Of a stretch of DNA of 64,000 nt, positions 418 through 60,628 are shown one piece after another. This DNA comes from Candidatus Poriferihabitaceae bacterium (GTDB lineage Bacteria > Pseudomonadota > Gammaproteobacteria > Arenicellales > Poriferihabitantaceae). The stretch lies in assembly GCA_965262585.1 (NCBI GenBank), contig OZ253546.1, forward strand, positions 136,653 to 200,652. The letters run 5' to 3'. Position 1 is the stretch's first letter, and every line of letters begins with the position of its first letter. A program made the position numbers and the translations under genes. The notes under the pieces are model-generated. The model was given only the letters and a program-made list of their open reading frames with translations. It had not been told where the DNA came from and did not search any database.

Positions 418-882
418 TAAGGAGCGGCTTACGCCGACATGTTTTACTGGATTCCCGATACGATGAAAAATATGGTCGCTGGCGCTCCCTATTTTTCTAT
501 CGTTCGGGAATGACGCACTTTTGATATTCCTCGTTTGCGGATGAGGACTCCCAGATCGTCATTCTCGTGCCGCCAAGTCGTTATTCCCGCGACAGCGGGA
601 ATGACGAGTTGGGGGACACGGGAATCCAGTGAGACATGCCGGCGATAGCCGACTCATTATTAGTTTTCTGGATTCCCGATACGATGAAAAATATGGTCGC
701 TGCCGCTCCTTATTTTTCTATCGTTCGGGAATGACGCACTTTTGATATTCCTCGTTTGCGGATGAGGACTCCCAGACTCGTCATTCTCGTGCCGCCAAGT
801 CGTTATTTCCGCGACAGCGGGGATGACGAGTTGGGGGACACGGGAATCCAGTGAAATATGCCGGCGATAGCCGACTCCTTAA
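418..882 (+). repeat. Mosaic hairpin-repeat array R1 (A-, B- and D-units, ATTCCC-N8-GGGAAT cores).
   Basis: A-unit at 451-511, D-unit at 516-557, B-unit at 558-630 with core ATTCCCGCGACAGCGGGAAT at 583-602. A second A/D/B set follows. Confidence 0.9.
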
Positions 883-1419
883 TTATTTATGCAACGCCAT
901 TTCTATTTTTTCGCGGTCTCGGTTTGGGTCGGGGGTTGCTGTTATGGCTTCGATTTTTTTTATGTAGTCGGGGGGTAAACCGGCTTCTTTGGCGCCGGTT
1001 AGGACGTGTTGTTTATACCAAGTGAAGGGGTGGATGGTGGTGTTGATTGCGGTGGGGGCGGCGCAATAGGTGAATGCGGTTTCAGTTTCGCCGGTTTCAT
1101 TTAGTACGCGGACTACTTTTTTTTCGTAGCCGTATCCCAAACCTTCGGCTTTATCTAATGCGTCTACTTCGCCAGCGTCAATGGTGAATAATCTGCCGAT
1201 TACGGCGTGATTTTTGTCTCCGGTATAATACGCATCGCATTTACCCGAGCCGTCTTTGTCGCTGCGTTTATGAAAACGTAAATCGTGGGCTGGCAAGGTG
1301 TAGATTCCGATTACTTTTGCGCTCGGCACTCGCTTGCACAACCGCCGCGCAAACATGTTGGAGCCATATGCAAAATATTTTTCCTGCATTTCTATTCCGC
1401 TATCTACAAATGAGATCAT
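883..1419 (-). CDS. Gamma-glutamylcyclotransferase (AIG2/GGACT-like) family protein.
   Basis: N-terminal YFAYGSNM motif typical of the GGCT fold. About 170-aa size. The start may be the internal Met (MQEKYFAYGSNM). The gene is AT-richer than its neighbours. Confidence 0.7.
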   Translation of the reverse strand: MISFVDSGIEMQEKYFAYGSNMFARRLCKRVPSAKVIGIYTLPAHDLRFHKRSDKDGSGKCDAYYTGDKNHAVIGRLFTIDAGEVDALDKAEGLGYGYEKKVVRVLNETGETETAFTYCAAPTAINTTIHPFTWYKQHVLTGAKEAGLPPDYIKKIEAITATPDPNRDREKIEMALHK

Positions 1420-1461
1420 AATAATGTGTGAGCAATTACAACATACATGAAGTACGCCAGA

Positions 1462-3138: not shown

Positions 3139-3308
3139 GATTATTTTTCCGGTGGTAGGGCGGGGTTGCGCATTTTGTGGATTATTGTAATGTAATTTGC
3201 ATGTTTTTCCATGCTGAATGGAGGGGAATTGTTTTACAGTAAAAACATGTCCGGCGTAAGCCGCTCCATATGGGGTAGAATGCCCTACCAATTTTGATAA
3301 TTTGTGTT

Positions 3309-4559: not shown

Positions 4560-5050
4560 ATGACGAGTTTTGATACTCCTCGTTTGCCGATGAGGACTCC
4601 CAGACTCGTCATTCTCGTGCCGCCAAGTCGTTATTCCCGCGACAGCGGGGATGACGAGTTGGGGGACACGGGAATCCAGTACAACATGCCGGCGATAGCC
4701 GACTCCCTACGCCGTCATTCTCGCGAAAGCGGGAATCCAGTGAGACATGCCGGCGATAGCCGACTCCTTATTAGCCTTCTGGATTCCCGATACGATGAAA
4801 AATATGGTCGCTGACGCTCCCTATTTTTCTATCGTTCGGGAATGACGACGCACCGCCGTCATTCTCGTGCCCCCAAGTCGTTATTCCCGCGCCAGCGGGG
4901 ATGACGAGTTGGGGGACACGGGAATCCAGTAAAACATGCCGGCGATAGCCGACTCCTTATTTGGCCTTCTGGATTCCCGATACGATGAAAAATATGGTCG
5001 CTGGCGCTCCCTATTTTTCTATCGTTCGGGAATGACGAGTTTTGATACTT
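4558..5050 (+). repeat. Mosaic hairpin-repeat array R2.
   Basis: D-, B-, C- and A-units. C-unit example GTCATTCTCGCGAAAGCGGGAATCCAGT at 4714-4741. The array starts at the argD stop and runs into the nudC 3' end. Confidence 0.9.
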
Positions 5051-6032: not shown

Positions 6033-6056
6033 GGGCAGGGCTGATTCAGAAGCCCA

Positions 6057-7010
<954 letters not shown>

Positions 7011-7216
7011 CTAACGCAAAGCGCGGGGCGTAACCCGCGAAAGCCCGGTGGGGGGCGTGGGTAGTTTCGCGTCTAGGGCGTATTGCGGCGATATACCGCC
7101 GGGCGGCAATTATGCTATTATTGCCGACCTTGCGAATATCCTGATTAACCTCCAACCAATTCTTGACTTGCCCGACTGCCACCGGCATCGGGGCGGGTAT
7201 GAATGAGGCCTCATTA

Positions 7217-8383: not shown

Positions 8384-8417
8384 TTCTTACTTATTTATAC
8401 CCTACCGGACTGTAAAA

Positions 8418-10115: not shown

Positions 10116-10117
10116 AA

Positions 10118-11362
10118 GCCTCGTCAAAATCTGCAAACGAGGAGTATCAAAACTCGTCATTCCCGAACGATAGAAAAATAGGGAGCGCCAGCGACCATAT
10201 TTTTCATCGTATCGGGAATCCAGAAGGCTAATAATGAGTCGGCTATCGCCGAACATGTTGTACTGGATTTCCGCTTTCGCGAGAATAACGGCGTAGGGAG
10301 TCGGCTATCGCCGGCATGTTTCACTGGATTCCCGTGTCCCCAACTCATCATTCCCGCTGTCGCGTGAATGACGAGTTGGGGCACGAGAATGACGAGATTG
10401 TGGTTTTTTTCGTAGGTACCCATTGCGACTTGTCCTCATCCGCAAACGAGGAATATCAAAAGTGCGTCATTCCCGAACGATAGAAAAATAAGGAGCGCCA
10501 GCGACTATATTTTTCATCGTATCGGGAATCCAGAAGGCTAATAATGAGTCGGCTCTCGCCGGCATGTTGTACTGGATTCCCGTGTCCCCAACTCATCATT
10601 CCCGCTGTCGCGTGAATGACGAGTTGGGGCACGAGAATGACGGCGGCCCGTCGTCATTCCCGAACGATAGAAAAATAGGGAGCGCCAGCGACCATATTTT
10701 TCATCGTATCGGGAATCCAGAAAGCCAATAATGAGTCGGCTGTCGCCGAACATGTCTTACTGGATTCCCGCTTTCGCGAGAATGACGGCGTAAGGAGTCG
10801 GCTATCGCCGGCATGTTGTACTGGATTCCCGTGTCCCCAACTCGTCATCCCCGCTGTCGCGTGAATAACGAGTTGGGGCACGAGAATGACGGCGGCCCGT
10901 CGTCATTCCCGAACGATAGAAAAATAGGGAGCGCCAGCGACCATATTTTTCATCGTATCGGGAATCCAGAAAGATAAATAATGAGTCGGCTATCGCCGGC
11001 ATGTTTTACTGGATTCCCGTGTCCCCAACTCGTCATTCCCGCTGTCGCGTGAATAACGAGTTGGGGCACGAGAATGACGGCGGCCCGTCGTCATTCCCGA
11101 ACGATAGAAAAATAGGGAGCGCCAGCGACCATATTTTTCATCGTATCGGGAATCCAGAAGGCTAATAAGGAGTCGGCTATCGCCGGCATGTTTCACTGGA
11201 TTCCCGTGTCCCCAACTCATCATTCCCGCTGTCGCGTGAATGACGAGTTGGGGCACGAGAATGACGGCGGCCCGTCGTCATTCCCGAACGATAGAAAAAT
11301 AGGGAGCGCCAGCGACTATATTTTTCATCGTATCGGGAATCCAGAAACTAAATAATGAGCGA
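10118..11362 (-). repeat. Mosaic hairpin-repeat array R3 (about 6 A-units, inverted orientation).
   Basis: Repeated ...GTCATTCCCGAACGATAGAAAAATAGGGAGCGCCAGCGACCATATTTTTCATCGTATCGGGAATCCAG..., interleaved with B- and C-type units. Confidence 0.9.
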
Positions 11363-11394: not shown

Positions 11395-12312
11395 CTATTC
11401 CTGGTCAAAAAAATCTTCGTCTATGATTTTTGTTTCATAGGTTTGTTGCGTCTGCACGCCGATGTTGTGTTGGTACATTAGATCAACCAACTTGCTTCCA
11501 TCAATAAGAATTATTGAGTGGTGCGCCTGACTGGCTTTTTCCTGCGCATTCCTATGAAAATTGGAAGTAGTGACGAAGATGCCTTTGTTCGTGTCTCCAC
11601 TCATTGCGCCGATGAAATTGCGAATCTCTTTTTCACTGACATCGGTTTCGGAATAACGCTTTGCCTGAGTATAGATTTTTTCAAGACCGAGTTGGTCTGA
11701 ATTAATCACTCCGTCAATCCCGCCATCTCCAGATTTCGGTGTTTCAAGAAAATCCCCGTAACCCATTTTCTTGAAGAGTTCCAGTATCACTCTTTCAAAA
11801 TAATAGGGGTTGATTTCTTTTAGTTTGTCCAAGAGTTCATCCTTGGTTTGTTCTTCAATGGCAGACAGGCCTTTATCAATTAACTCCTGTGGAGACGCGC
11901 CTTTTAAGTCCGCATCGTTGTCAGTATTCTCTGTAACATTATCCACTTTTCTTGCGCGTGTCTTTGTTTTGCGATTGGCGACGTGCGCTAAATAATCAGG
12001 ATCTTTGATGATGTCCTTGCTTGTTATCTTTCCTTTCAAAAGGGCGGATTTCCCCTTTTCCGTTATTTGCACCCTCCCCCGCTCAGGGTAATGTACAAAC
12101 TTTGCAAGTTTTAAATGAGAGGTTGCCCAATGTATACGGTGCAATAACGCATTGGGCCCGGTTTTAGTGACTTGATTGAGCAAGTCTTCGGGAAGGGCGG
12201 AATAATACTTATCCCGCACTTGAATCCTTAAATCTTTTTTGTTCAATGACTGGTCATTGCTGAGAATTTCAAGAATGGGTTGACAGGTATCGAGAGTTTT
12301 AGGTAATTTCAT
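11395..12312 (-). CDS. mrr: Mrr-type (type IV, modification-dependent) restriction endonuclease.
   Basis: N-terminal winged-helix-like region, then an Mrr catalytic core: FERVILELFKKMGY...GDGGIDGVI...IYTQAKRY...GIFVTTSNF. Low-GC gene. First ATG at 12312. Confidence 0.85.
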   Translation of the reverse strand: MKLPKTLDTCQPILEILSNDQSLNKKDLRIQVRDKYYSALPEDLLNQVTKTGPNALLHRIHWATSHLKLAKFVHYPERGRVQITEKGKSALLKGKITSKDIIKDPDYLAHVANRKTKTRARKVDNVTENTDNDADLKGASPQELIDKGLSAIEEQTKDELLDKLKEINPYYFERVILELFKKMGYGDFLETPKSGDGGIDGVINSDQLGLEKIYTQAKRYSETDVSEKEIRNFIGAMSGDTNKGIFVTTSNFHRNAQEKASQAHHSIILIDGSKLVDLMYQHNIGVQTQQTYETKIIDEDFFDQE

Positions 12313-12334
12313 AATAGTGCTTTCCAATGGGTTA

Positions 12335-17643: not shown

Positions 17644-18267
17644 ATGCGACATTATGAAATCGTGCTGTTGATCCACCCGGATCAAAGCGAGCAGGTGCCG
17701 ACTATGCTGGCGCGTTACAAGGATGTGGTGACCGCCGAAAAGGGGCTTGTTCATCGCGTCGAAGACTGGGGCAGGCGGCGTCTGGCCTATATGATCAACG
17801 AAGTCCACAAGGCGCATTATGTGATGCTGAATGTGGAATGCGAGTTGGAGGTTTTGCGGGAACTCGAGAAAAACTTCAAGTTCAATGACTCGATTATCCG
17901 CAGTTTGGTAATCCGCCGCGACCAGGCTGTCACCGAACAATCCGCCCTCGCCAAAGCGAAGGCCGAGGAAATGCGCGAAGAAGCGCGGATTGAATCCGAA
18001 AAACGTGCCGCCCGGGAAAAGGCTGAAGCGACCCGTGAAGCCCGTGAAGCCCGCGAAGCCGCCGAACCAGCCAAACCCGCCGAACCCGCGAGTGAAACCA
18101 AGCAACCGGCGGACGATGCCAAACAACCGGCGGATGATGCCGAACAAAGCGTTGATGAAGGCAAGTCTGAAAATCAACAACTTGATAAAGAACCTGATCA
18201 ACAACCCGATCAAGAACCCGAACCACAACCCGAACCCGAACCCGAACCTCAACCGGAGACCGTGTGA
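17644..18267 (+). CDS. rpsF: 30S ribosomal protein S6 with a ~95-aa acidic/proline-rich C-terminal extension.
   Basis: N-terminus [18 protein letters not shown]...WGRRRLAY is canonical S6. The tail contains KQPADDA x2 and [15 protein letters not shown]. Confidence 0.95.
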
Positions 18268-19083: not shown

Positions 19084-19983
19084 CGACGTACCGCCGTCAT
19101 TCTCGTGCCGCCAAGTCGTTATTTCCGCGACAGCGGGAATGACGACTTGGGGGACACGGGGATCCAGTGAAATATGCCGGCGACAGCCGACTCCCTACGC
19201 CGTTATTCTCGCGCAACTGGAATCCAGTACAACATGTGCGGCGAGATCCGACTCATTATTAGCCTTCTGGATTCCCGATACGAAGAAAAATATAGTCACT
19301 GGCGCTCCTTATTTTTCTATCGTTCGGGAATGACGACGTACCGCCGTCATTCTCGTGCCGCCAACTCGTTATTCCTGCGACAGCAGGAATGACGAGTTGG
19401 GGGACACGGGAATCCAGTAAAACATGCCGGCGACAGCCGACTCCCTACGCCGTTATTCTCGCGAAAGCGGGAATCCAGTACAACATGTGCGGCGAGATCC
19501 GACTCATTATTAGCCTTCTGGATTCCCGATACGATGAAAAATATAGTCGCTGGCGCTCCTTATTTTTCTATCGTTCGGGAATGACGACGTACCGCCGTCA
19601 TTCTCGTGCCGCCAAGTCGTTATTCCTGCGACAGCAGGAATGACGAGTTGGGGGACACGGGAATCCAGTGAAATATGCCGGCGACAGCCGACTCCCTACG
19701 CCGTTATTCTCGCGACAGCGGGAATCCAGTGAAACATGCCGGCGATAGCCGACTCATTATTGGCTTTCTGGATTCCCGATACGATGAAAAATATAGTCGC
19801 TGGCGCTCCTTATTTTTCTATCGTTCGGGAATGACGCACTTTTGATATTCCTCGTTTGCGGATGAGGACTCCCAGACTCGTCATTCTCGTGCCGCCAAGT
19901 CGTTATTCACGCGACAGCGGGGATGACGAGTTGGGGGACGCGGGAATCCAGTGAAACATGCCGGCGACAACCGACTCATTTAG
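19076..19983 (+). repeat. Mosaic hairpin-repeat array R4.
   Basis: Three A-units with B-, C- and D-units, in the same consensus as R1. Confidence 0.9.
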
Positions 19984-20061
19984 TAACTTCGCATAAGTGA
20001 TATTATGTAAAGTTACTTATTATTCCGGCCAAACCAGCCAAATCCCCGGCCAGATCGGTTT

Positions 20062-28322: not shown

Positions 28323-28685
28323 GGGCGGCTGTCGCCCACCCGTCGTCATTCCCGAACGATAAATAAGGAGTCGGCTATCGCAAGGTCGTCATTCTCGAAC
28401 GATAGAAAAATAGGGAGCACCAGCCGCCGTCATTCTCGAACGATAGAAAAATAGGGAGCGCCAGCGACCATATTTTTCATCGTATCGGGAATCCAGAAGG
28501 CTAATAATGAGTCGGCTATCGCCGGACATGTTGTACTGGATTCCCGTGTCCCCAACTCGTCATCCCCGCTGTCGCGGAAATAACGACTTGGGGCACGAGA
28601 ATGACGGCGGCCCGTCGTCATTCCCGAACGATAGAAAAATAAGGAGCGTCAGCGACCATATTTTTCATCGTATCGGGAATCCAGT
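28323..28685 (-). repeat. Mosaic hairpin-repeat array R5.
   Basis: Two full and two partial inverted A-units plus one B-unit. Confidence 0.9.
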
Positions 28686-28835
28686 GATAGGCGCATACAA
28701 ATCCCCGCATTTGGTTTGTGCGCTGGTATACTGGCGACTGTTTTCCCGGTGAGGTTGTGATGGATTGCTGTGTCGTGTTTCCTGTGTTGCGCCTCGAGCG
28801 GATGCTTGCTAGCGTTTTGACTTCCTGCCCCGATC

Positions 28836-29555: not shown

Positions 29556-30212
29556 ATAAGGAGCGGCTTGCGCCGGAATTGTTTTACTGGATTCCAGTTT
29601 CGCGGGAATGACGAGGTGAGGAGCGGCTACGCCGGGATTGTTTTACTGGATTCCCGATACGATGAAAAATATGGTCGCTGGCGCTCCCTATTTTTCTATC
29701 GTTCGGGAATGACGACGTACCGCCGTCATTCTCGTGCCCCAAGTCGTTATTTCCGCGACAGCGGGAATAACGACTTGGGGACACGGGAATCCAGTAAAAC
29801 ATGCCGGCGACAGCCGACTCCCCAGGCCCGTCATTCCTGCGAGATCCGACTCATTATTGGCTTTCTGGATTCCCGATACGATGAAAAATATAGTCGCTGG
29901 CGCTCCTTATTTTTCTATCGTTCGGGAATGACGACGTACCGCCGTCATTCTCGTGCCGCCAAGTCGTTATTTCCGCGACAGCGGGAATGACGACTTGGGG
30001 GACACGGGAATCCAGTAAAACATGCCGGCGACAGCCGACTCCCTACGCCGTCATTCTCGCGAAAGCGGGAATCCAGTACAACATGCCCGGCGATAGCCGC
30101 TCCTTATTTAGCCTTCTGGATTCCCGATACGATGAAAAATATGGTCGCTGGCGCTCCCTATTTTTCTATCGTTCGGGAATGACGACCTTGCGATAGCCGA
30201 CTCCTTATTCCC
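29555..30212 (+). repeat. Mosaic hairpin-repeat array R6.
   Basis: Three A-units with B- and C-units. It fills the space between the regulator stop and the nirK promoter. Confidence 0.9.
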
Positions 30213-30218
30213 TCAAAA

Positions 30219-33253: not shown

Positions 33254-33655
33254 CTGCCTGTCCCTACGAGTCGTCATTCCCGAACGATAGAAAAATAGAG
33301 AGCGCCAGCGACCATATTTTTCATCGTCCCCCAGATCGTCATTCCCGAACGGTAGAAAAATAAGGAGCGCGAGCGACTATATTTTTCTTCGTGTCGGGAA
33401 TCCAGAAAAAACATGTCGGCGCCAGCCGCTCCTTATTAAGGACAGGCACGGGGGCACTGTCCCTACGAGATATGGTTTTCGTAGGGACAGCGCCCCCGTG
33501 CCTGTCCTCATCGACAAACGAGGAATATCAAAAGCGCGTCATTCCCGAACGATAGAAAAATAGGGAGCGCCAGCGACCATATTTTTCATCGTATCGGGAA
33601 TCCAGTCAAACAATCCCGGCGCAAGCCGGACATTATTAAGGACGCGGCTTGCGTG
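33254..33655 (-). repeat. Mosaic hairpin-repeat array R7, including an additional GGACRGGCACGGGGGC motif.
   Basis: Three inverted A-units (two degenerate), one D-unit, and the long palindrome listed separately. Confidence 0.85.
33439..33508. repeat. Long palindrome: 29-bp arms with 1 mismatch and a 12-nt loop.
   Basis: AGGACAGGCACGGGGGCACTGTCCCTACG at 33439-33467 pairs with CGTAGGGACAGCGCCCCCGTGCCTGTCCT at 33480-33508. Confidence 0.9.
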
Positions 33656-36510: not shown

Positions 36511-36604
36511 TATTTAGTTTTCTGGATTCCCGATACGATGAAAAATATAGTCGCTGGCGCTCCCTATTTTTCTATCGTTCGGGAATGACGAACTTTGATA
36601 CTCC
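36511..36604 (+). repeat. Solitary A-unit of the mosaic repeat family (R8).
   Basis: CTGGATTCCCGATACGATGAAAAATATAGTCGCTGGCGCTCCCTATTTTTCTATCGTTCGGGAATGACG, between yceI and acs. Confidence 0.9.
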
Positions 36605-42208: not shown

Positions 42209-42800
42209 CAGCCGACTCGTTATTTAGTTCTCTGGATTCCCGATACGATGAAAAATAAGGTCGCTGGCGCTCCCTATTTTTCTATCGTTCGAGAATGACG
42301 ACGCGCCGCCGTCATTCTCGTGCCGCCAAGTCGTTATTTCCGCGACAGCGGGAATGACGAGTTGGGGGACACGGGAATCCAGTGAGACATGCCGGCGATA
42401 GCCGACTCCCCAGGCCCGTCATTCTCGCGAAAGCGGGAATCCAGTAAAACATGCCGGCGAATGCCGACTCCCTACGCCGTCATTCTCGCGAAAGCGGGAA
42501 TCCAGTGAAACATGTCCGGCGAGATCCGACTCATTATTAGCCTTCTGGATTCCCGATACGATGAAAAATATAGTCGCTGGCGCTCCTTATTTTTCTATCG
42601 TTCGAGAATGACGACCTTGCGAGATCCGACTCCTTATTAGCCTTCTGGATTCCCGATACGATGAAAAATATGGTCGCTGGCGCTCCCTATTTTTCTATCG
42701 TTCGAGAATGACGGCGGCTGGCGCTCCCTATTTTTCTATCGTTCGGGAATGACGACCTTGCGATAGCCGACTCATTATTTATCATTCGGGAATGACGGAC
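42205..42800 (+). repeat. Mosaic hairpin-repeat array R9.
   Basis: Three full A-units plus partial units, one B-unit and two C-units. It starts at the mtaD stop and ends at the DUF4276 gene stop. Confidence 0.9.
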
Positions 42801-44706: not shown

Positions 44707-45531
44707 ATGAGCAATCAACAAGACAATCAATCCGAAACCAACGAAACCGACCACAACCACAACGTCGACCCGGCGGAAATTCATAAGTTTGGGCAAATGG
44801 CTTCGCGGTGGTGGGATCCGGAAGGGCAGTTTAAGCCGTTGCATGAGATCAATCCGTTGCGGCTTGATTTTATTGATCGGCATTCGGCGTTGGCGGGGAA
44901 GAGGGTGTTGGATGTGGGGTGTGGTGGCGGTATATTGGCGGAGGCGATGGCGTTGCGGGGGGCTGAGGTGACTGGCATCGATATGGGCGAGGCGCCGTTG
45001 GAGGTGGCGCGGTTGCATGCGTTGGAAAGTGGTGTCAGCGTGGCGTATCGGCAAATCACCGCCGAAGCCCTTGCCGCCGAACAATCCACCGAACAATCCA
45101 CCGAACAATCCGCCGAACAATCCACCAAACAATCCGCAAAACAATCCGCGAAAAAAACCGACACGCCAACGCAATGGGACATCGTTTGCTGCCTTGAATT
45201 GCTCGAACATGTCCCCGATCCGGCAAGCGTGGTGTCGGCTTGTGCGGACTTGGTGAAGCCCGGCGGGGCGGTGTATTTTTCCACCATCAACCGCAATCCG
45301 AAATCATTTCTGATGGCGATAGTTGGCGCGGAGTATGTGCTTAACTTGCTGCCCAAAGGCACGCATCAATACGAGAAATTAATCCGCCCACGGGAACTCT
45401 GTAATTGGTGCCAAAGTGCCAACTTGAACATCACCGAAATCACCGGCATGCACTACAACCCCCTCAATCAAACCTATTCCCTGGGCCCCGGCGTGGATGT
45501 AAATTATCTCGTGTTCGGCACTAAAACCTGA
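44707..45531 (+). CDS. ubiG: Ubiquinone biosynthesis O-methyltransferase with an internal repeat insertion.
   Basis: Motifs [29 protein letters not shown] motif [13 protein letters not shown] and [11 protein letters not shown]. The (EQST)n insertion is described separately. Confidence 0.9.
45079..45150 (+). repeat. In-frame 12-bp tandem repeat x6 inside ubiG (GAACAATCCACC and variants).
   Basis: Copies start at 45079, 45091, 45103, 45115, 45127 and 45139. They encode [24 protein letters not shown]. Confidence 0.9.
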
Positions 45532-45534
45532 TTC

Positions 45535-48282: not shown

Positions 48283-49770
48283 CGAGAATAAAGGGGTCAG
48301 TGTGAATTAAATTGATTATACGGCGAGGAAGGGATGAAGTGCGTCATTCCCGAACGATAGAAAAATAAGGAGCGGTAGCGACTATATTTTTCATCGTATC
48401 GGGAATCCAGAGAAAACAATCCGGCGCCAGCCGCTCCTTACATGTTGTACTGGATTCCCGCTTTCGCGGGAATAACGGCATGGGGAGTCGGCTATCGCAA
48501 GGCCGTCATTCTCGAACGATAGAAAAATAGGGAGCGCCAGCGACCATATTTTTCATCGTATCGGGAATCCAGAAGGCTAATAATGAGTCGGCTATCGCCG
48601 CACATGTTGTACTGGATTCCCGCTTTCGCGAGAATAACGGCGTAGGGAGTCGGCTGTCGCAAGGCCGTCATTCTCGAACGATAGAAAAATAAGGAGCGCC
48701 AGCGACTATATTTTTCATCGTATCGGGAATCCAGAAGGCTAATAATGAGTCGGATCTCGCCGCACATGTCTCACTGGATTCCCGCTTTCGCGAGAATAAC
48801 GGCGTAGGGAGTCGGCATTCGCCGGCATGTTTTACTGGATTCCCGTGTCCCCCAAGTCGTCATTCCCGCTGTCGCGTGAATAACGACTTGGCGGCACGAG
48901 AATGACGAGTCTGGGAGTCCTCATCGACAAACGAGGAATATCAAAAGTGCGTCATTCCCGAACGATAGAAAAATAAGGAGCGCCAGCGACCATATTTTTC
49001 ATCGTATCGGGAATCCAGTTAAACAAACCCGGCGCAGCCGCACATTATTAAGGACGGGCACGGGGGCGCGGGAATAACGACTTGGCGGCACGAGAATGAC
49101 GGCGTAGGGAGCGGCTATCGCCGGACATGTTGAGAATAAAGGGGTCAGTGTGAATTAAATTGATTATACGGCCGGGAAGGATAGGGGTTTATCTAATTCA
49201 CACTGACCCCTTTATTCCATCCGCAAACAAGGAAAATCAAAAGTGCGTCATTCCCGAACGATAGAAAAATAGGGAGCGCCAGCGACTATATTTTTCATCG
49301 TATCGGGAATCCAGTAAAACAATCCGGCGACAGCCGCTCCTCGCCGTTATTCCCGAATAAGGAGCGGCTGTGCCGACATGTTTCACTGGATTCCCGTGTC
49401 CCCAAGTCGTCATCCCCGCTGTCGCGTGAATGACGACTTGGGGCACGAGAATGACGGCGTCGCGCCAGCGACCTTATTTTTCATCGTATCGGGAATCCAG
49501 TTAAACAATCCGGCGACAGCCGCTCCTCGCCGTTATTCCCGAATAAGGAGCGGCTGTGCCGACATGTTTCACTGGATTCCCGTGTCCCCAACTCGTCATC
49601 CCCGCTGTCGCGTGAATGACGACTTGGGGCACGAGAATGACGGCGTCGCGCCAGCGACCATATTTTTCATCGTATCGGGAATCCAGTTAAACAAACCCGG
49701 CGCAGCCGCACATTATTAAGGACGGGCACGGGGGCGCGGGAATAACGACTTGGGGGCGCGAGAATGACGG
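48283..49770 (-). repeat. Mosaic hairpin-repeat array R10 (about 7 A-units), containing two copies of a different 40-bp element.
   Basis: Inverted A-, B-, C- and D-units. GAGAATAAAGGGGTCAGTGTGAATTAAATTGATTATACGG occurs at 48284-48323 and 49132-49171. Confidence 0.9.
49134..49217. mobile_element. MITE-like 84-bp element with perfect 24-bp terminal inverted repeats.
   Basis: GAATAAAGGGGTCAGTGTGAATTA at 49134-49157 and its exact reverse complement at 49194-49217, separated by a 36-bp spacer. A solo left arm lies at 48286-48309. Confidence 0.5.
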
Positions 49771-49772
49771 GT

Positions 49773-49898
49773 TATGAGAAGATTTGGTTCATTTATGAGA
49801 AGATTTGGTTCATTTATGAGAAGAAACCATTCATTTATGAGAAGAAACCGTTCATTTATGAGAAGATTCAGAACATTCATGAGAAGAATCAGTTCATT
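49773..49898. repeat. 21-bp tandem repeat x6 (TATGAGAAGA-N6-TTCATT) upstream of the giant surface-protein gene.
   Basis: Copies start at 49773, 49794, 49815, 49836, 49857 and 49878. A conserved 15-bp core surrounds a variable 6-bp centre, and a partial 7th copy follows. Confidence 0.9.
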
Positions 49899-50017: not shown

Positions 50018-53000
50018 ATGCCAATGATGAACTCTATCCCTTCCCCTCGCTTTGGGGCTTCGCTGTTGCTGGTTATCAGTCTCCTTTTTGGGCTGTCCTC
50101 GCAAGTTGCTGCACAGGCAACAGCAGACACACCCGTCATAACTGCTACTAGCATAAACGCTACTAGCGGGGCATCTCTAGCCCATATACAGTTCGGTAAT
50201 ACTTTTGGTAACGCTGTATCTCTAAATGACATTTTTACCGGAACCGCTAGAGCAGGCAGTGGTATTACCATAGCCAGTTTGACATTTTCTCCTAATCGTG
50301 CGACTGACCCAACAGCAAGACTTGATTGCAATGGAGCAATCTTCTTTTCTACAGGAGCAAGTGGTTTTGGTGATACAAATATCTCAATAGATGCCATCAT
50401 TAACAACCCCGGAACCAGCAGTTTTTCAGCCGGTGATACACTCAATTTGGGGATTACCATAAATACTAGTCAACAGCCTAAGGGTACTACACCAACTTTT
50501 TGTGAACCCGTTGACCCAACCCTTTTTATAACCACTTGGCGGACTACCGGGAGTAACGAATCCATTACCATTCCCACCACTGGTACTGGTTATAACTACA
50601 CCGTTGATTGGGGCGATAGCACGGCGGACACCGACCACACCGGCCCCGCCAGCCATACCTTCGCCACGCCGGCCTCGTATACGGTGCGCATCAGTGGTGA
50701 TTTTCCGCGGATTCATTTTAATAATAATGCACCCGATAGAAACAAAATCAGAGCCGTCAATCAATGGGGCGATCAAGTATGGACTTCCATGGAAAGTGCT
50801 TTTCGGGGCGCGGGCAGTCTCGCTGGGCAAGCAACCGATGAACCTGATTTAAGTATGGTTACCAATATGGCGAATATGTTTCGTGGTGCCGGTGTTTTTA
50901 ATCAGGATATTGGTGATTGGGATGTGAGTAATGTTACCAATATGACGAATATGTTTAACACTGCCGCTGCTTTTAATCAGGATATTGGTAGTTGGAATGT
51001 GAGTAACGTTACCAATATGACGAATATGTTTAACACTGCCTCTTCTTTTGATCAGGATATTGGTAGTTGGAATGTGAGTAACGTTACCGATATGAGCAGT
51101 ATATTTGAGGATAACAGTGCCTTTAATCAGGATATTGGTAGTTGGAATGTGAGTAACGTTACCAATATGAGTCTAATGTTTCGCAATAACAGTGTCTTTA
51201 ATCAGGACATTAGTAGTTGGAATGTGAGTAATGTTACCAATATGCGTGGAATGTTTGCTGATGCCACTGCCTTTGATCAGGATATTGGTGAGTGGGATGT
51301 GAGTGGAATTACCACTATGAATCAAATGTTTAGTAGTGCCAGTTCCTTTGATCAGGATATTGGTGAGTGGGATGTGAGTAATGTTACCAATATGAATAGT
51401 ATGTTTAGTACTGCCAGTTCCTTTGATCAGGATGTTGGTGATTGGAATGTGAGTAAGGTTGGCAATTTTGGTAGTATGTTCGCATCCGCTACGCTTTCCA
51501 CGGCTAACTACGATTCGTTATTGCAGGGTTGGTCTACCATCGACACCGCCGCCGGCGAAACGGCATTACAATCCGGCGTTGCTTTCCATGGCGGTAGTTC
51601 CGAATATTGCGCCGGTACCGCCGCCAGAAATATTTTGATTGGTGCGCCGAATAACTGGACCATTGACGCCGATAACACCGGTGGCGGAAGAGCCACCGAT
51701 TGCTCAGCCGTTGCTACTTTGAGCGCGCTATCGCTGTCGACCGGGGGTTTGAATGAAACTTTTGCGCCGGCCACTCTCACCTATACTACATCGGTTCGAA
51801 GTATCGTCGCCGACACCACAATCACGGCAACCGCCGATAACAATGCCACCGTCGCAATCACCGGCACTAATGCAAGTGGCGCGGCATTAGCCGTAAGCGG
51901 CACCACCGTTACGGGATTCACCGAAGGCGCAAACATCATCACCGTTGCCGCAATCTCGCAAGATAACACCGTCACAGCACCCTACACCATCACCGTTACA
52001 CAAGCCGCACCGCCCGACCCAGGCGATTTTGTTACCACATGGCGAGTTGGGGCATCGGAGTTTATCAACTTTTCTACCTTTTTCGGGGAAACCTATAACT
52101 TCAATGTTGATTGGGGTGATGGCACGGCTATGTCCACCAACCAAAGCGCCCTTGTCTCCCATACCTACACCGAGGCAGGCGATTATGAAGTGCGTGTCAG
52201 CGGCACTTTTCCGCGGATGTATATTAATAATAATACCGCCGTGAGAAACAAAATCATCTCCATCGATCAATGGGGTACTCAACAATGGACTTCCATGGGC
52301 AATGCTTTTTTCGGCGCACAAAATCTCGCCGTGCGGGCAACCGATGTTCCTGATTTAAGTAATGTTACCGATGTGACGAGTATGTTTGAAGATGCCGTTG
52401 CGTTGAACCCAGCCACTGCCGGTGCGTTGAACCAAGCCTTTGCTGATTGGGATGTCAGTAATGTTACCAATATGTCTCGCATGTTTTATAATGCCAATGC
52501 GTTTGACCAAGACATTGGTGATTGGAATGTCGGTAGTGTTACCAATATGTCGGAGATGTTTAGTTTGTGTAACTTTAATCAGGATATTGGTGATTGGGAT
52601 GTCAGTAAGGTTAGCAATATGTCGGAGATGTTTAGTAATAACTTTGGCTTTAATCAGGCTATTGGTGATTGGGATGTCAGTAGTGTTGCCAATATGTCGA
52701 ATATGTTTCTTGGCACTCCCTTTGATCAAGATATTGGTGATTGGAATGTGAGTAACGTTACCAATATGTCGAATATGTTTGGAAGTGCCAATTCCTTTAA
52801 TCAGGATATTGGTGATTGGGATGTGAGTAAGGTTAGCAATATGTCGAGTGCGTTTCATACTGCCCAGACGTTTAATCAGGACCTTAGTGATTGGGATGTC
52901 AGTAGTGTTACCAATATGAGTGGAATGTTTAGAAATGCCGATGCCTTTGATCAGGACCTTAGTGATTGGGATGTGGGTAGTGTTACCAATCTGACGAATA

Positions 53001-56000
53001 TGTTTACCAGCATTACGCTTTCCACTGCCAACTACGATTCGCTGTTGCAGGGTTGGTCTACCATCGACACCGCCGGCGGCGAAACGGCATTACAATCCGG
53101 CGTTACTTTCGATGTCGGCAGTTCCGAATATTGCGCCGGTACCCCCGGCAGAAATATTTTGACTGACGACACCGGCAATAACTGGACCGTTAACGATGGC
53201 GGACGAACCACCGGTTGCTCAGCCGATGCTACTTTGAGTGCGCTATCGCTGTCGTCCGGGGGTTTGAATGAAACCTTTGCGGCGGCCACGCGCGCCTATA
53301 CTACCTCGGTTCGCAGTACCGTCGCCGCCACCACAATCACGGCAACCAATGACAATGCCGTCGTCGACATCACCGGCACTGATACCAGTGGCGCGGCATT
53401 AGCCGTAAGCGGCACCACCGTTACGGGATTCACCGAAGGCGCAAACATCATCACTATTGCCCTAACTTCGCGAGATAACACCGCCACAGCAACCTACACC
53501 ATCACCATTACACAAGTCGCACCGCCTAGCCCAGACGATTTTATTACCACATGGCAAGTTGGGCCATCGGATCTGGATATCACTATTCCCACCACCGGCG
53601 ATGGTTATAACTATTCCGTTGATTGGGGCGATGGCACGACTATATCCACCGCCCAAACTGGCGATGCCACCCATACCTACGCCAGAGCAGACGAAGGTTA
53701 TGAAGTGCGTATCAGCGGCACTTTCCCGCGGATTTATTTTAATAATACTTCAGTCGATAGAACCAAAATCATCGCCATCGATCAATGGGGTAATCAAGCA
53801 TGGACTTCCATGTCAAGTGCTTTTAACGGTGCATCAAATCTCGCCGGGCAGGCAAGCGATGTTCCCAATTTAAGTAGTGTTACCAATATGTCGAATATGT
53901 TTGCTAATGCTTCTGTCTTTAATCAGAATATTGGCGATTGGGATGTGAGTAACGTTACCAATATGTCGGGTATGTTTAACACTGCTTCTGTCTTTAATCA
54001 GAATATTGGCGATTGGAATGTGAGTAACGTTACCAATATGTCGAATATGTTTGCCAATGCCAGTGTCTTTAATCAGGATGTTGGTGATTGGAATGTGAGT
54101 AGTGTTACCAATATGGCGGGTATGTTTGCTGGCACTGCCTTTAATCAGGATATTGGTGATTGGAATGTGGGTAAGGTTACCAATATGGTTAGTATGTTTG
54201 CTAGTGCCATTGCTTTTAATCAGGATATTGGTGATTGGGATGTGAGTAGTGTTACCGATATGAGTGGTTTGTTTAATATTGCCAATACCTTTAATCAGGA
54301 TATTGGTGATTGGGATGTGAGTAATGTTACCAATATGAACTCTATGTTTAGGGGTCGCACTTCTAGTGCTTCCATTGCCTTTGACCAAGACCTTGGTGAT
54401 TGGGATGTGGGTAAGGTTACCGATCTGGACCGCATGTTTTTCGGTGCTAGGCTTTCCCCGGCCAACTACGATTCGCTGTTGCAGGGTTGGTCTACCATAG
54501 AGTTCGGAGAATCGGCGCTACAAGCGGGCCGTACTTTCGATGTCGGCAATTCCCAATATTGCGCCGGTACCGCCGCCAGAAATACTTTGACTGCCAACCC
54601 CGGCAGTAACTGGACCGTTAACGATAGCGGAAGAGTCGCCGGTTGCTCAAACGATGCCAGTTTAAGCGCCCTGTCGCTGTCGCCCGGTACTTTGAATCCC
54701 GTTTTTGCTGCCGCTACTACGGCATATACTGCATCTATTGCCAATACCGCAAGTAGCATCACAATCACGGCACCCACCACCAATGAAAATGCCACTGTCA
54801 ACATCGCCGGCACTAGTGAAAATGGCACCGCATTAACCGTAAATGGCGGAGTGGTTTCAGGCTTAAGCACCGGCGTAAACATCATCACCCTTGACATAGT
54901 CTCACAAGATAACACCGCCACAGCAGGAACCTACACTTTCACCGTTACTCGAGCCTCGGTTGCATCCACAACGGATTTTGTTACCACTTGGCGAGTTGAT
55001 GCGGCGGATTTGGGCATCACTATTCCGACCTTTAGCGGGGTGACCTACGACTACGCTGTTGATTGGGGCGATAACATGTCGGACAGCGGCCAAACCGGCG
55101 ACGCCACCCATACCTACACCGATGCAGGGGATTACACGGTGCGCATCAGCGGCATTTTTCCACGGATTTATATTAATACTGCAGGCGATAGACTGAAAAT
55201 CATCGCCATCAATCAATGGGGTGATCAACAATGGACTACGATGGCTCGGGCTTTTGCCGGCACCAGAAATCTTGTCGGGCTGGCAAGCGATGTTCCTGAT
55301 TTAAGTAATGTTACCGATATGCTTAGAATGTTTGCCGGTGCCTCTTCCTTTAATCAGGCTATTGGTGATTGGGATGTGAGTAATGTTACCAATATGGGTG
55401 CTATGTTTACTGGTACCGGGTTTAATCAGGACATTGGTGATTGGGATGTGAGTTCGGTTACCAGTATGAACAGCATGTTTGCTCGTGCCCTTGCCTTTAA
55501 TCAGGATATTGGTAGATGGGATGTGAGTTCGGTTACCAATATGAACGCCATGTTTGATCGTGCCCCTGCCTTTAATCAGGATATTGGTAGATGGGATGTG
55601 AGTTCGGTTACCGATATGGGTTTGATGTTTCAAAGTGCTAATGCCTTTAACCAAGACATTGGTGATTGGGATGTGATTTCGGTTACCAATATGAACTCAA
55701 CGTTTCGCAATACCGCTGCATTTGATCAGGACCTGGGTGATTGGGATATGAGTTCGGCTACCGGTCTCTTCAACATGTTTGTGGGCATTACGCTTTCCGT
55801 GGAAAACTACGATTCGCTGTTGCGGGGTTGGGCTACGATAGATAGCGATGAAAGCCCGCTACTACCCGACCGTACCTTCGTTGCCGGCAATTCCATGTAC
55901 TGCGGCGGTACCGCCGGCAGAAATATTTTGTCGGCAACCGACGGCAATAACTGGGATGTTAGAGATGGCGGACAAACCACCGGTTGCTCAAACGATGGCA

Positions 56001-58918
56001 GTTTGAGTGCCCTGTCGCTGTCGCCCGGTAGTTTGAACCCGGCTTTTGATGCCGCTACTACTTCATATACTGTAGACACTACCACCGACAGCATCACCAT
56101 CGTGGCAACCACCGATAGTGGCGCCGATGTCGACATCACCGGCACTAATTCCAATGGAGTTGCACTAACCGAAACCGACCGAGTGGTTTCAGGCATAACC
56201 ATCGGCATAAATACCATGACCATGGTCATAACCTCACAAGATAATACCGCCGTAACAACCTACGCTTTCACTATTACTCGAGGTGCTGAACCATCCACCG
56301 ATGATTTTGTTACCACATGGCGAGTTGATGCGGCGGATCTGGGCATCACTATTCCCACCTTTACCGGGGCGACCTACGACTACGCTGTTGATTGGGGCGA
56401 TAGCATGTTGGACACCGGCCAAAACGGCGACGTTAGCCATACCTACACCGATGCAGGGGATTACACGGTGCGCATCAGCGGCATTTTTCCACGGATTTAT
56501 TTTAATAATGCAGATGGAGATAATAAAAGTAAAATCATCGCTATCAATCAATGGGGCGATCAAGAATGGACTTCGATGAATCGGGCTTTCACCGGCGCCT
56601 CAAATCTTGTCGGGCTGGCAAGCGATGTTCCTGATTTAAGTAATGTTATCGATATGAATGGGATGTTTGCCGATGCCTCTGCCTTTAATCAGGACATTGG
56701 TGGTTGGGATGTAAGTAATGTTATCGATATGGATTTGTTATTTTCTGAAGCCCTGAGTTTTAATCAGGATATTAGTGGGTGGGATGTGAGTAACGTTACC
56801 GGTATGCTTGGGATGTTTTCCGAGACTCCATTTAATCAGAATATTGGTGGTTGGGATGTGAGTAATGTTACCGATATGAGCAGTATGTTTATTGATAACC
56901 TGATCTTTAATCAGGATATTAGGCGTTGGGATGTGAGTAATGTTACCGATATGAGCAGTATGTTTAATGATGCTGCTGCCTTTAATCAGGATGTTGGTGA
57001 TTGGGATGTGAGTAGTGTTACCAATATGACCGACATGTTTAGAAACGCTACGCTTTCTACGAACAACTACGATTTGCTGTTGCAGGGTTGGTCTGCTTTG
57101 ACGCTACAAAGCGGTATTACCTTCAGTGGCGGCAATTCCACCTATTGCGCCACCGCCGCCAGAACTGCTTTGACTAGTGCGCCGAATAACTGGACCATTA
57201 CTGATGGCGACGTAAGCAACACTTGCAACATCGCCAGTTTGACTGGCTTGTCGTTGTCGCCCGGAACATTGACGCCAATTTTTGACAGCAGCATCACCAG
57301 TTACACCGCCGAAGTTACCACCGACAGCATCACAATCATCGCAACCCCCGGCAATGGCAGCGTCGCAATCACCGGCACCGATGCAGATAGCATGGCACTA
57401 ACCGTAAATGGCGAAGTGGTTTCAGGCTTAACCATAGACGAGAACATCATCACCGTTACCGTAACCGCACTAATCGGCGGCGCTACTCAGTCCTACGAAA
57501 TCACCGTTACTCGAGCCGGACTGACTCTCGCTGCAATAGCCGATCAACAAGCCGTAAATGAAGTCATCTTGCCGGAGACCGCCATTGCCATAGTGGGCGG
57601 CATAGTTACGGCAATCAGCGATAGAGTTTCCAATGCCGCTTCGACCAGCCAAGTCGGCGGTTTCCAATTCGGCGGCGGCAATTCCTTGCACAGCATTTTG
57701 GTCAACGGCGGGCGGGATGTACAAAACGATTCCTTGGATTGGAAAAAAATGATGGGTAATTCCTCATTCACAATGCCGCTTAATGCCCTTGACGGCGGCG
57801 GCACAGTCGGCAATACCACGGTTTGGGGTAACGGAAGTTACACCAACCTCTCCGGCGGCAGTTCCGACCAGGTGGAATGGGATGGCGATGTAAGCGGAAT
57901 TACTTTAGGTGTAGACACCAAAGTCAGCCCCGGTTTATTGCTCGGATTATCGGTTTCACAATTTGACGGTTCCTTTGATTTCACCAACAACAACACCACC
58001 AGCGGCGAAAACCAAAAAGGCACTCACGAAACCGACCTGACCAGCATTAATCCGTATCTAAATTGGCAGTCCGGTAACTTTGATTTATGGGCGACTGTGG
58101 GGTATGGAAGCGGTGAAGTTGAATATGACCCGGACGAGGTTGGTGTTGCGACTAACACCGAAGATGCCGATCTAAAAATGCTCGCCTTCGGACTTAACCA
58201 CACCATAATCCCCGCCGCCGCCGACGCCATGAAAATCCGCCTCAAAAGCGAAGTATCCACCGGGCAATTTGAAGTCCACGGCGTAGGCGGAACCGATGTA
58301 AGCGTATCCCGCCTACGACTGGCCATCGAAGGCAGCAAAGAACACCAAGACGAAACCGGCAATAGATTAGCCTCATCCATTGAATTGGGAGTGAGGCATG
58401 ACGGCGGAGACGGCGAAAACACCGGCGCCGGATTAGAACTAGGCGGCACCCTGAAGTACACCAACCACAAAGGCCTCCGCTTGGAAGGCCGAGGCCACTG
58501 GCTGGCGGCACACTCCGAAAATGTAGACGAATGGGGCGTGTCTGGTTTAATAGGAATCGGCGACGGCATCGCCTCCAAATCCGGTGGATTGTCGTTCAGT
58601 TTATCCACCGGCTGGGGTGCACAATCTGGTGGAAACCTATGGAACGGTGATATATCCAACCTATCCCCCACCGAAACCCAAGACACCACCTTCATGGCAA
58701 CCGAACTAAGTTACGGCATGCCCACCCCCTCCGGCCGTGGCTTAATAACCCCCTACACCCGCCTAAAAACCACCACCAACGGCACAACCCACCACCACCT
58801 AGGCGCCCGCTGGACCCTAAACACAACCGCTACTTTGAACTTGGAAGCCGGACATGAGATCAAAGCGGATGGTGGGGTAGATAACACGATAAAACTAACT
58901 GGCGAGTTGGCTTTATAA
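50018..58918 (+). CDS. Giant (2966-aa) surface protein: signal peptide, five tandem BspA/DUF285-type LRR plus cadherin-like beta-sandwich modules, and an autotransporter-like C-terminal beta domain.
   Basis: Signal peptide [34 protein letters not shown]. Five modules begin near 50515, 52021, 53531, 54970 and 56298. Each has TTWR..ITIPT..YNY.VDWGD...HTY..Y.VRISG.FPRI, then 5-8 copies of the 26-aa repeat [16 protein letters not shown], then [11 protein letters not shown], then LSALSLS.G.LNP.F...YT...ITVTR. The C-terminal ~465 aa has alternating beta-strand-like patterns ([12 protein letters not shown]...GITLGVD...). Confidence 0.85.
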
Positions 58919-60628
58919 GGACGGCTAACGCCGCACCGCCGTCATTCTCGTGCCGCCAACTCGTTATTCCCGCGACAGCGGGAATGACGAGTTGGGGGAC
59001 ACGGGAATCCAGTACAACATGTAAGGAGCGGCTGGCGCCGGATTGTTTAACTGGATTCCCGATACGATGAAAAATATAGTCGCTGGCGCTCCTTATTTTT
59101 CTATCGTTCGGGAATGACGCACTTTTGATATTCCTCGTTTGCGGATAAGGACTCCCAGACTCGTCATTCTCGTGCCGCCAAGTCGTTATTCCTGCGACAG
59201 CAGGAATGACGACTTGGGGGACACGGGAATCCAGTAAAACATGCCGGCGAATGCCGACTCCTTATGCCGTTATTCCCGCGCAACTGGAATCCAGTACAAC
59301 ATGTAAGGAGCGGCTGGCGCCGGATTGTTTAACTGGATTCCCGATACGATGAAAAATATGGTCGCTGGCGCTCCCTATTTTTCTATCGTTCGAGAATGAC
59401 GGCCTTGCGATAGCCGACTCCCTACGCCGTTATTCCCGCGACAGCGGGAATCCAGTACAACATGTCCCGCGAGATCCGACTCATTATTACCCTTCTGGAT
59501 TCCCGATACGATGAAAAATATAGTCGCTACCGCTCCTTATTTTTCTATCGTTCGAGAATGACGACCTTGCGATAGCCGACTCCCCAGGGCCGTCATTCTC
59601 GTGCCGCCAAGTCGTTATTCCTGCGACAGCAGGAATAACGAGTTGGGGGACACGGGAATCCAGTAAAACATGCCGGCGATAGCCGACTCCCTACGCCGTT
59701 ATTCCCGCGAAAGCGGGAATCCAGTACAACATGTGCGGCGAGATCCGACTCCTTATTACCCTTCTGGATTCCCGATACGATGAAAAATATAGTCGCTGCC
59801 GCTCCTTATTTTTCTATCGTTCGAGAATGACGACAGGCCGCCGTCATTCTCGTGCCCCAACTCGTTATTTCCGCGACAGCGGGAATAACGAGTTGGGGAC
59901 ACGGGAATCCAGTAAAACATGCCGGCGAATGCCGACTCCTTACGCCGTTATTCCCGCGACAGCGGGAATCCAGTACAACATGTCCTGCGACAGCCGACTC
60001 ATTATTAGCCTTCTGGATTCCCGATACGATGAAAAATATAGTCGCTACCGCTCCTTATTTTTCTATCGTTCGAGAATGACGACCTTGCGATAGCCGACTC
60101 CCCAGGGCCGTCATTCTCGTGCCCCCAAGTCGTTATTCACGCGACAGCGGGAATAACGACTTGGGGGACACGGGAATCCAGTTAAACATGCCGGCGAATG
60201 CCGACTCCCTACGCCGTTATTCCCGCGAAAGCGGGAATCCAGTACAACATGTAAGGAGCGGCTGGCGCCGGATTGTTTAACTGGATTCCCGATACGATGA
60301 AAAATATAGTCGCTGGCGCTCCTTATTTTTCTATCGTTCGGGAATGACGACGTACCGCCGTCATTCTCGTGCCGCCAAGTCGTTATTCACGCGACAGCGG
60401 GAATAACGACTTGGGGGACACGGGAATCCAGTAAAACATGCCGGCGAATGCCGACTCCCTACGCCGTTATTCCCGCGGCAGCGGGAATCCAGTACAACAT
60501 GCCCTGCGACAGCCGACTCCTTATTACCCTTCTGGATTCCCGATACGATGAAAAATATGGTCGCTGGCGCTCCCTATTTTTCTATCGTTCGAGAATGACG
60601 AACTTGCGACAGCCGACTCCTTATTTGG
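58915..60628 (+). repeat. Mosaic hairpin-repeat array R11 (largest; about 7 A-units).
   Basis: Alternating B-, C-, A- and D-units with ATTCCC-N8-GGGAAT cores. It spans from the giant gene stop to the ccmA upstream region. Confidence 0.9.

Follow-up and report, generated by a model that had tools for sequence, protein, structure and literature searches.

A 64,000-nucleotide stretch of DNA from Candidatus Poriferihabitaceae bacterium (OZ253546.1, positions 136,653-200,652, assembly GCA_965262585.1; called here, in its whole length, the window) carries ten arrays and one solo unit of hairpin repeats, amounting to 8,103 bp or 12.7% of its DNA. We read these arrays as mosaics resembling the Neisseria intergenic mosaic elements (NIMEs), composed of one hairpin class, that of the CGTC-tagged repetitive extragenic palindromes (REPs), equivalent to NTS or Ssn-related motifs (SRMs), and recognized by a nuclease of the Ssn type; we would put the probability of this reading at about 0.6. 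The dRS3 repeat of Neisseria is the best-known member of the class. The host organism is not Neisseria; it belongs to the sponge-symbiont family Candidatus Poriferihabitaceae, order Arenicellales. The arrays are a non-Neisseria instance of NIME-type arrays, unusually dense, within a repeat class that had itself already been described.

The shortest unit, C (CGTCATTCTCGCGAAAGCGGGAATCCAG), is the published 28-nt consensus of the Neisseria Transformation Sequence (NTS), CGTCATTCCCGCGMAVGCGGGAATCYRG, with one mismatch (27/28), which is the tolerance used by the NTS authors (PMC11893778). Allowing one mismatch, CGTCATTCCCGCGMAVGCGGGAATCYRG is found 8 times in the window, and allowing two, 13 times; 0 copies are expected. 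About half of all dRS3 copies are this 28-nt oriented element (Chenal et al. 2025, PMC11893778). Its nuclease, SsnA, is a 94-aa GIY-YIG protein that binds NTS solely as single-stranded DNA (ssDNA) and cleaves a few nucleotides upstream; in mutagenesis, binding depended critically on the C after the palindrome, and cleavage on the three bases that precede it (PMC11893778). Genomes from many phyla, also outside Neisseria, carry ssnA together with NTS-like SRM repeats, and 81% of the genomes with more than 200 SRMs have ssnA (PMC11893778). The initial annotation of the window had called the function of the repeats unknown, a statement now dated because SsnA, a cognate ssDNA nuclease, has been described for the NTS class.

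What is conserved across the window is an oriented frame, 5'-CGTC-ATTCYCG...hairpin...CGGGAAT-C(CAG), rather than the 20-bp dRS3 alone. Reading out the units on both strands establishes that the CGTC head, the stem base ATTCYCG/CGGGAAT and the C(CAG) tail are common to A, B and C. Unit C, CGTC-ATTCTCGC-GAAA-GCGGGAAT-CCAG, is the minimal 28-nt form. Unit A, on the opposite strand, reads CGTC-ATTCCCG-AACGATAGAAAAATA...TATTTTTCATCGTAT-CGGGAAT-CCAG (68 nt, 36 copies), and unit B reads CGTC-ATTCTCG-TGCC...(nested dRS3)...CA-CGGGAAT-CCAG (70-72 nt). Both keep the frame and bear long, lineage-specific stems. The type example of A lies as follows.

447..514, minus strand: A unit as an NTS-type frame, (C)GTCATTCCCG-(long imperfect hairpin)-CGGGAATCCAG; 68 nt, 36 full copies

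The CGTC head and the trailing C are invariant in the A and B frames. In the C units (16 copies), the trailing C is again invariant, with a CGTC head in 5 and CGTT in 11. Folded as ssDNA, C reaches -5.6 (z=-3.0), A -20.2 (z=-7.3) and B -28.8 (z=-9.0) kcal/mol; the spacers between frames, D and E, have no significant ssDNA structure. Two pairs of the A stem change in a compensatory manner across three lineages, C-G becoming U-A in 4 of 30 sequences and G-C becoming A-U in 11 of 30.

The 11-nt head CGTCATTCYCG occurs 82 times in the window, against 0.12 expected, with 41 occurrences on each strand. Frames alternate between head-to-head and tail-to-tail, and hence their numbers are equal on the two DNA strands. 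In head-to-head pairs the spacer is 9 nt long (13 cases) or is D (~42 nt); in tail-to-tail pairs it is E (38-39 nt). Within one array, A frames are inverted relative to B and C frames. The single orientation per array claimed in the initial annotation holds by strand for the units as they were drawn there, but not for the oriented frames. Those units had also been described as bounded by a 20-bp ATTCCC-N8-GGGAAT repeat. This complete dRS3 is present at 8 junctions (8 exact copies against 0.04 expected), with many more variants that have ATTCTC or GGGGAT, whereas most boundaries are half-sites, ATTC[C/T]CG and CGGGAAT, separated by the unit interior. The junctions, given as always GGGAATGACG or GGGAATCCAG, are mostly so: the four bases 3' of the palindrome are CCAG in 57 cases, GACG in 37, AACG in 8 and GATG in 6. 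Spacer E, when read on the opposite strand from B and C, contains a GC-rich 6-bp hairpin, GTCGGCWWTCGCCGGC, followed by ATGTTTTAC (for example 59672-59687, minus strand, and 48811-48826, plus strand), and resembles a weak intrinsic terminator.

The units contain a 20-bp inverted repeat in many copies, as dRS3 does, and by folding they form the hairpin that defines NTS as ssDNA. The orientation of NTS, with GTC upstream of the palindrome and C after it, is kept even where the tail CCAG becomes CTCC. Di Nocera et al. (2013, PMC3733652) placed dRS3 in a superfamily of 'CGTC-tagged REPs' found in five phyla, mostly as head-to-head dimers and with no dedicated transposase, and clustered in Neisseria and Wolbachia. 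Unit C has the features of their CGTC-1 group, namely the CGTC tag, an 8-bp stem starting from A-T/T-A, a 4-nt loop, a CCA-type tail and head-to-head dimers. NIMEs are dRS3 copies flanking 50-150-bp RS units, in arrays that vary at syntenic positions and are associated with surface-protein genes; as of 2007 they had not been seen outside Neisseria (Bentley et al., PMC1797815). In the window, units of 28-73 bp are bounded by ATTCYCG/CGGGAAT, most palindrome halves enclosing the unit, and three arrays vary relative to their syntenic counterparts on L001, a 1.94-Mb metagenome-assembled contig; the genus is not Neisseria. Tested against these definitions, the repeats therefore belong at the sequence level to the NTS / CGTC-REP class, and the name NIME fails on host genus only. 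The likeness to Neisseria dRS3 and NIMEs seen in the initial annotation was well founded: unit C is NTS, which contains dRS3, with one mismatch, and there is both syntenic variation and flanking of a surface-protein gene.

The host lineage follows from its proteins and repeats. The closest protein relatives of the window are metagenome-assembled genomes (MAGs) of Arenicellales and Poriferihabitaceae. Its fused TRAP-transporter permease (DctM, 884 aa) gave no record in an exact look-up but has a 99% identical homologue on L001; further relatives of the permease, 72-78% identical, are on 1.6-3.4-Mb chromosomes, and the named matches (~65-73%) are to 'Gammaproteobacteria bacterium', Arenicellales and Candidatus Spongiihabitans. 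Poriferihabitaceae MAGs stem from sponge genome projects, and the host is therefore an uncultured sponge-associated gammaproteobacterium. None of the known Neisseriaceae DNA uptake sequence (DUS) dialects was found in the window, with a single DUS10 in 64 kb, nor were Correia elements, unlike in Neisseria. Together with the Arenicellales/Poriferihabitaceae relatives, the missing dialects agree with the non-Neisseria context that had been suspected.

The frame is conserved beyond this genome. In a search of one genome per species, the A-unit pattern was found, among the matches listed, in OY843749.1 (Arenicellales bacterium) and OZ243042.1 (Candidatus Poriferihabitaceae bacterium); it had 0 matches in IMG/VR (2.9 million viral contigs) and in JGI metagenome contigs. 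Both relatives keep the A-type frame, and their second long hairpin is a different sequence. Their chromosomes conserve GTCATTCYCG...CGGGAATC with diverged interiors, and the tail is CCAG in OZ243042 and CTCC in OY843749. Thus GTCATTCYCG, CGGGAAT and the next C are constant across the three lineages, and conservation upstream of the A unit starts at CGTC in the window lineage and OY843749, and at GTC in OZ243042. The interiors of A, D and E are lineage-specific; what the IMG/VR contigs with NTS share with these units is limited to the inner part of B and the NTS core of C. The exact NTS 27-mer is found on 68 IMG/VR contigs (41-69% GC), 13 of which contain Neisseria DUS10. Two of the 68, L018 and L048, encode Ssn-like GIY-YIG proteins. 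These are of 97-102 aa (L018 2948-3377, L048 10026-10334), and both contigs have 65-69% GC. On L018 the gene is flanked on either side by exact NTS copies, an independent instance of the published linkage of ssnA and NTS; on L048 a single NTS was found, ~7.4 kb from the gene.

With the initial annotation's own example units as queries, blastn-short recovered 36 full and ~5 partial A units (61 bp), ~30 B units (71-73 bp), 16-19 C units and ~9 D units in the window, plus an additional 38-40-bp spacer that we name E. The eleven arrays of about 8 kb and the roughly 40 A units first counted by eye are thus reproduced, the eleven being the ten arrays and the solo A. The arrays are all intergenic, except that the final A unit of array 2 overlaps the 3' end of the nudC open reading frame (ORF).

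418..880, plus strand: array 1, order A-D-B-E-A-D-B-E; type examples A 451-511, D 516-557, B 558-630, E 631-670
4560..5040, plus strand: array 2, between argD and nudC; C unit / NTS CGTCATTCTCGCGAAAGCGGGAATCCAG at 4713-4740
10120..11360, minus strand: array 3, 1.24 kb, between ahcY and mrr/dctM; order A-B-A-B-A-B-C-A-B-A-D-B-C-A-D
19085..19990, plus strand: array 4, between rplI and phoU; period ~251 bp; syntenic with L001 5100-5945, with different unit content
28340..28690, minus strand: array 5, left flank of the Crp-family regulator gene (28836-29555)
29600..30215, plus strand: array 6, to the right of the Crp-family gene and upstream of the nirK-cytochrome c gene; opposite in orientation to array 5
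33270..33610, minus strand: array 7, composed solely of A units; its neighbours are the SCO1/SenC gene and an MFS transporter gene
36515..36595, plus strand: solo A unit, between a yceI-like gene and an acetyl-CoA synthetase gene
42225..42800, plus strand: array 9, bordering the HEC-01 pair; NTS copies at 42417-42444 and 42478-42505
48335..49775, minus strand: array 10, 1.44 kb, flanking the giant autotransporter gene on its upstream side
58935..60605, plus strand: array 11, 1.67 kb with a ~249-bp period, on the downstream side of the autotransporter gene and opposite in orientation to array 10; then ccmA

Tandem Repeats Finder gives super-periods of 162, 187 and 249-251 bp with matches of 72-96% (83-96% in most rows). 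Unit identity is ~93-95% across the window, which has a GC content of 54%, and likeness within arrays is only slightly higher than between them (4.3 and ~4.8 differences per 74 nt, respectively). ORFs of 60-140 aa lie inside arrays in L001 (5416-5601, 13012-13317) and in the window (29568-29990, 49378-49719, 59731-60093). Some are called as genes in the public assembly; they are very likely translated repeats and spurious.

The arrays are also dynamic. Flanking DNA on L001 is 96-98% identical to the window and has arrays at the same three intergenic sites, and all three differ from those of the window in unit number, order and length; the counterpart of array 3, for instance, has a different unit order. 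This comparison shows that the arrays evolve by unit-level unequal recombination. Within an array of a related genome (L002 7634-8814), an IS3-family element (HTH_Tnp_1 + rve) truncates a long-hairpin unit.

We imagine that frames exposed as ssDNA, whether in incoming DNA (competence being putative) or in replication or repair intermediates, would fold into hairpins, and that a small GIY-YIG nuclease of the Ssn type, encoded elsewhere in the genome, would recognize them and cut a few nucleotides 5' of CGTC. Cutting might modulate recombination of flanking genes. The arrays themselves gain, lose and rearrange units through unequal recombination or slippage among near-identical frames, and they mark the exchange borders of accessory genes (a restriction enzyme, a candidate defence pair and an autotransporter). 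That the frames are probably read by an Ssn-type nuclease is suggested by the conservation across lineages of the positions published as critical.

Several points weigh against this scheme. The strict published SRM expression, HGTCWYN(0-2)YYVSBRHN(0-5)WNVSBRGN(0-2)RNCYNB, matches only 5 copies, each a C unit headed by CGTC; the A and B frames are too long for the short-loop SRM pattern, and their status as Ssn substrates is putative. A search for Ssn-family ORFs, by regular expression for GIY-YIG, by tblastn from two Ssn-like proteins and by a hidden Markov model of 120 homologues, gave none in the window, L001, L002 and 92 array-bearing 8-kb loci of two relatives (~0.85 Mb together), and the enzyme partner is accordingly inferred rather than demonstrated. 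The search recovered its positive controls, L018 and L048, and nothing else. It covered the window and ~10-15% of each of the two related genomes, and a negative from so small a sample is weak. In the published survey, 19% of SRM-rich genomes are without ssnA (PMC11893778). An Ssn match on a contig of 66% GC does not belong to this lineage; the contig is from an unrelated organism and has no A units. One can also envision a bolder version, in which the NTS frame has diversified into long-stem derivatives that fill ~13% of the DNA, in arrays bracketing autotransporter adhesin genes and next to defence genes, and a Neisseria-style array-gene-array system for cassette exchange or antigen variation has arisen outside Neisseria, possibly with a partner other than SsnA. 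The failure to find ssnA in 0.85 Mb is what brings such a partner into consideration; we regard this version as unlikely.

Apart from recognition of NTS-type hairpins by an Ssn-type nuclease, the repeats might be selfish, REP/REPIN-like miniature elements copied by a trans-acting transposase (a RAYT-type Y1 enzyme or another), the arrays being accumulated insertions without host function. High copy number and near-identity between arrays would fit this, as would the REPIN-like head-to-head dimers, the variation in copy content between close relatives and a literature in which the spread of CGTC REPs is unexplained (PMC3733652). RAYTs, however, cleave GTAG, and the tag here is CGTC. Neither this tag nor the flanking genes agree with GTAG REPs or a REPIN-RAYT system, in that no protein family recurs, and no transposase with it, among 150 array-flanking ORFs; the commonest families are ABC_tran (3), EamA (3) and rve (2). 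The 25 families matched by most of these ORFs include no Y1 transposase or IS110 family (single-copy matches are possibly hidden), the sole transposase family being rve of the IS3 type, seen in 2 ORFs. When the ORFs of array loci were clustered all against all, spurious high-GC ORFs made up most of the outcome. In the window itself there is no transposase and no IS110/Piv-like or filamentous-phage gene, and the ~0.85 Mb of lineage DNA sampled, window included, gave neither an IS110 gene nor a RAYT, the RAYT search being indirect. Array positions are conserved in synteny, moreover, and the changes within them resemble unit-level recombination rather than new insertions. On balance a selfish origin appears doubtful. 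A role as target sites for a recombinase or phage, with the arrays as landing pads that capture genes, we consider improbable. In its favour, dRS3 is a documented phage-recombinase target in Neisseria (PMC1797815; PMC11893778), the accessory genes mrr and the HEC-01 pair lie at array borders, and inverted arrays surround the Crp-family and autotransporter genes. The recombinase and prophage check proposed in the initial annotation nevertheless brought up no IS110/Piv gene or filamentous prophage in the window, and the Pfam families reported for array-flanking ORFs include neither an IS110/Piv-like nor a filamentous-phage gene. The A-unit pattern is without a match in 2.9 million viral contigs, and the one insertion sequence inside an array, that of L002, is an IS3 element that merely truncates a unit.

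The hairpins could also act as RNA, terminating transcription, stabilizing mRNA 3' ends or insulating genes, as proposed for REP/BIME. Four of the 11 arrays do lie between convergent genes, the hairpins are very stable, and the reverse strand of the E spacer offers a GC-rich 6-bp hairpin with a T-rich tail. Yet array orientation is independent of the direction of flanking genes, some arrays being between divergent or tandem genes, and terminator-like sites across 48-61 kb are not enriched (19 against 14.3 +/- 4.4). Rfam at gathering thresholds gave 0 matches in the window, which has no tRNA or tmRNA either; a promoter scan gave no enrichment and GC skew no trend. Across lineages there is strict conservation of the tag bases that stay unpaired (CGTC, and the C that follows the stem), which indicates recognition of the sequence by a protein, and the published SsnA does not bind RNA (PMC11893778). 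Action at the RNA level is thus quite unlikely in our view, and all three of these accounts are less supported than a reading of the frames as NTS-type ssDNA hairpins. Other readings were rejected outright. In a CRISPR array the spacers would not be repeated, as D and E are, and here there are several kinds of unit and no cas genes. Integron attC sites are at odds with the lack of cassettes and of R'/R'' cores. Miniature inverted-repeat transposable elements with target-site duplications were dismissed since the flanks CTGG and GACG belong to the frame and are not duplications, and an assembly artefact since the repeat family is present in four independent assemblies.

The genes of the window are of a housekeeping kind apart from the autotransporter, Crp-family, mrr and HEC-01 genes near arrays.

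11395-12327, minus strand: mrr, type IV methyl-directed restriction gene (Mrr_N + Mrr_cat; PADLOC mREase_IV), between dctM and array 3
42802-44564, minus strand: HEC-01 candidate defence pair, DUF4276 + AAA_15/AAA_21 ATPase (PADLOC E = 1e-60 and 1e-181), abutting array 9
50018..58918, plus strand: 2966-aa autotransporter gene with DUF285/BspA-like, cadherin-like and PKD repeats and a C-terminal autotransporter beta-domain

The autotransporter gene, which carries many DUF285/BspA-like 75-bp repeats, is bracketed by the two largest arrays (10 and 11), mutually inverted, and the Crp-family regulator gene is similarly bracketed by two inverted arrays (5 and 6). Homologues of the C-terminal region of the autotransporter lie within 1 kb of the repeat core in 13 of the 92 array loci of the two relatives, a count that, having no genome baseline, cannot be read as an enrichment; these loci include L075, L090, L094, L120, L123, L136, L145, L149 and L162. 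On L001 mrr is missing, with 136 bp and a degenerate remnant of the frame in its place, and this looks like gain or loss of an accessory gene at an array border.

As listed in the initial annotation, ccmA/B/C/E are present, as is nirK with a C-terminal cytochrome c domain. In the window rpsF is followed by rplI, with rpsR between them in the syntenic gene calls of L001, and no priB was seen. The S6 protein has a long C-terminal extension (207-aa ORF, S6 domain at residues 3-91) in which 18032-18254 consists of in-frame tandem repeats with periods of 6-24 bp, of the AACCCG / CCGAACAATCCA types; repeats of similar sequence lie at 45074-45149, inside a methyltransferase gene. The gap that separates array 10 from the autotransporter gene holds a 21-bp unit, TTATGAGAAGAATCAGTTCAT, six times in tandem (49772-49898), and these copies may form a regulatory or phase-variable element. 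Two direct ~37-bp copies of ATTATACAGGGGGGAATAGGCAGTGCAAGRACAACA (21-57 and 87-123), 66 bp apart at the window's left edge, are unrelated to the array units.

Given that such repeats are already widespread outside Neisseria (PMC3733652, PMC11893778), the novelty of these arrays is smaller than the initial annotation implied. What they add is an NTS-type frame, apparently at very high density, in an uncultured symbiont of sponges, where it brackets the gene of a giant adhesin-like autotransporter and lies next to defence genes, and with it a second, phylogenetically distant system for studying the roles of NTS-type arrays in control of ssDNA recombination, gene exchange and surface variation. 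The long-stem derivatives offer a test of the substrate range of Ssn enzymes, which is relevant to the programmable ssDNA cutters that have been proposed. There is also a warning for annotation: repeat arrays, with the spurious ORF calls they produce, may account for about one eighth of such symbiont genomes.

Among known systems, the BIMEs and REPINs of E. coli, with their RAYT enzymes, are likewise intergenic palindromic mosaics of alternating orientation with fixed linkers, and they too are recognized as ssDNA hairpins. Their tag is GTAG, compared to CGTC here, no RAYT was found here, and the sequences are unrelated. The CGTC-1 REPs (PMC3733652) are another close system. Beyond the terminal tag, the 8-bp stem starting A-T and T-A, the 4-nt loop of unit C and the CCA-type tail, both show a predominance of head-to-head dimers, no adjacent dedicated transposase, and large clusters as in Neisseria and Wolbachia. 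The difference is in the host, Gammaproteobacteria/Arenicellales not being among those listed, and in the extended-stem derivatives that dominate here.

With NIMEs (Parkhill 2000; Bentley 2007, PMC1797815), the arrays share long intergenic mosaics with a small vocabulary of units between ATTCCC/GGGAAT bounds, syntenic arrays that vary in unit number and order between close relatives, and the flanking of a surface-protein gene. They differ in that complete dRS3 is rare (8 copies) and palindrome halves usually enclose a unit rather than alternate with it, and in a vocabulary of five units (A, B, C, D and E) compared to more than 100 RS families in NIMEs. The host is also not Neisseria, without its DNA uptake sequences or Correia elements, and the density, at 12.7% of the window, is high.

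A further close system is the Neisseria NTS with SsnA (PMC11893778). Here, in a sponge-symbiont gammaproteobacterium, most copies are 68-72-nt long-stem derivatives rather than 28 nt long, many have a T in the stem (ATTCTCG), and the DNA sampled has no ssnA. The two nonetheless have in common a 28-nt sequence identical at 27/28 positions, the hairpin, the CGTC head and the C after the palindrome, as well as high copy number, clustering around genes, including the array-gene-array arrangement, and occurrence in distant bacterial lineages.

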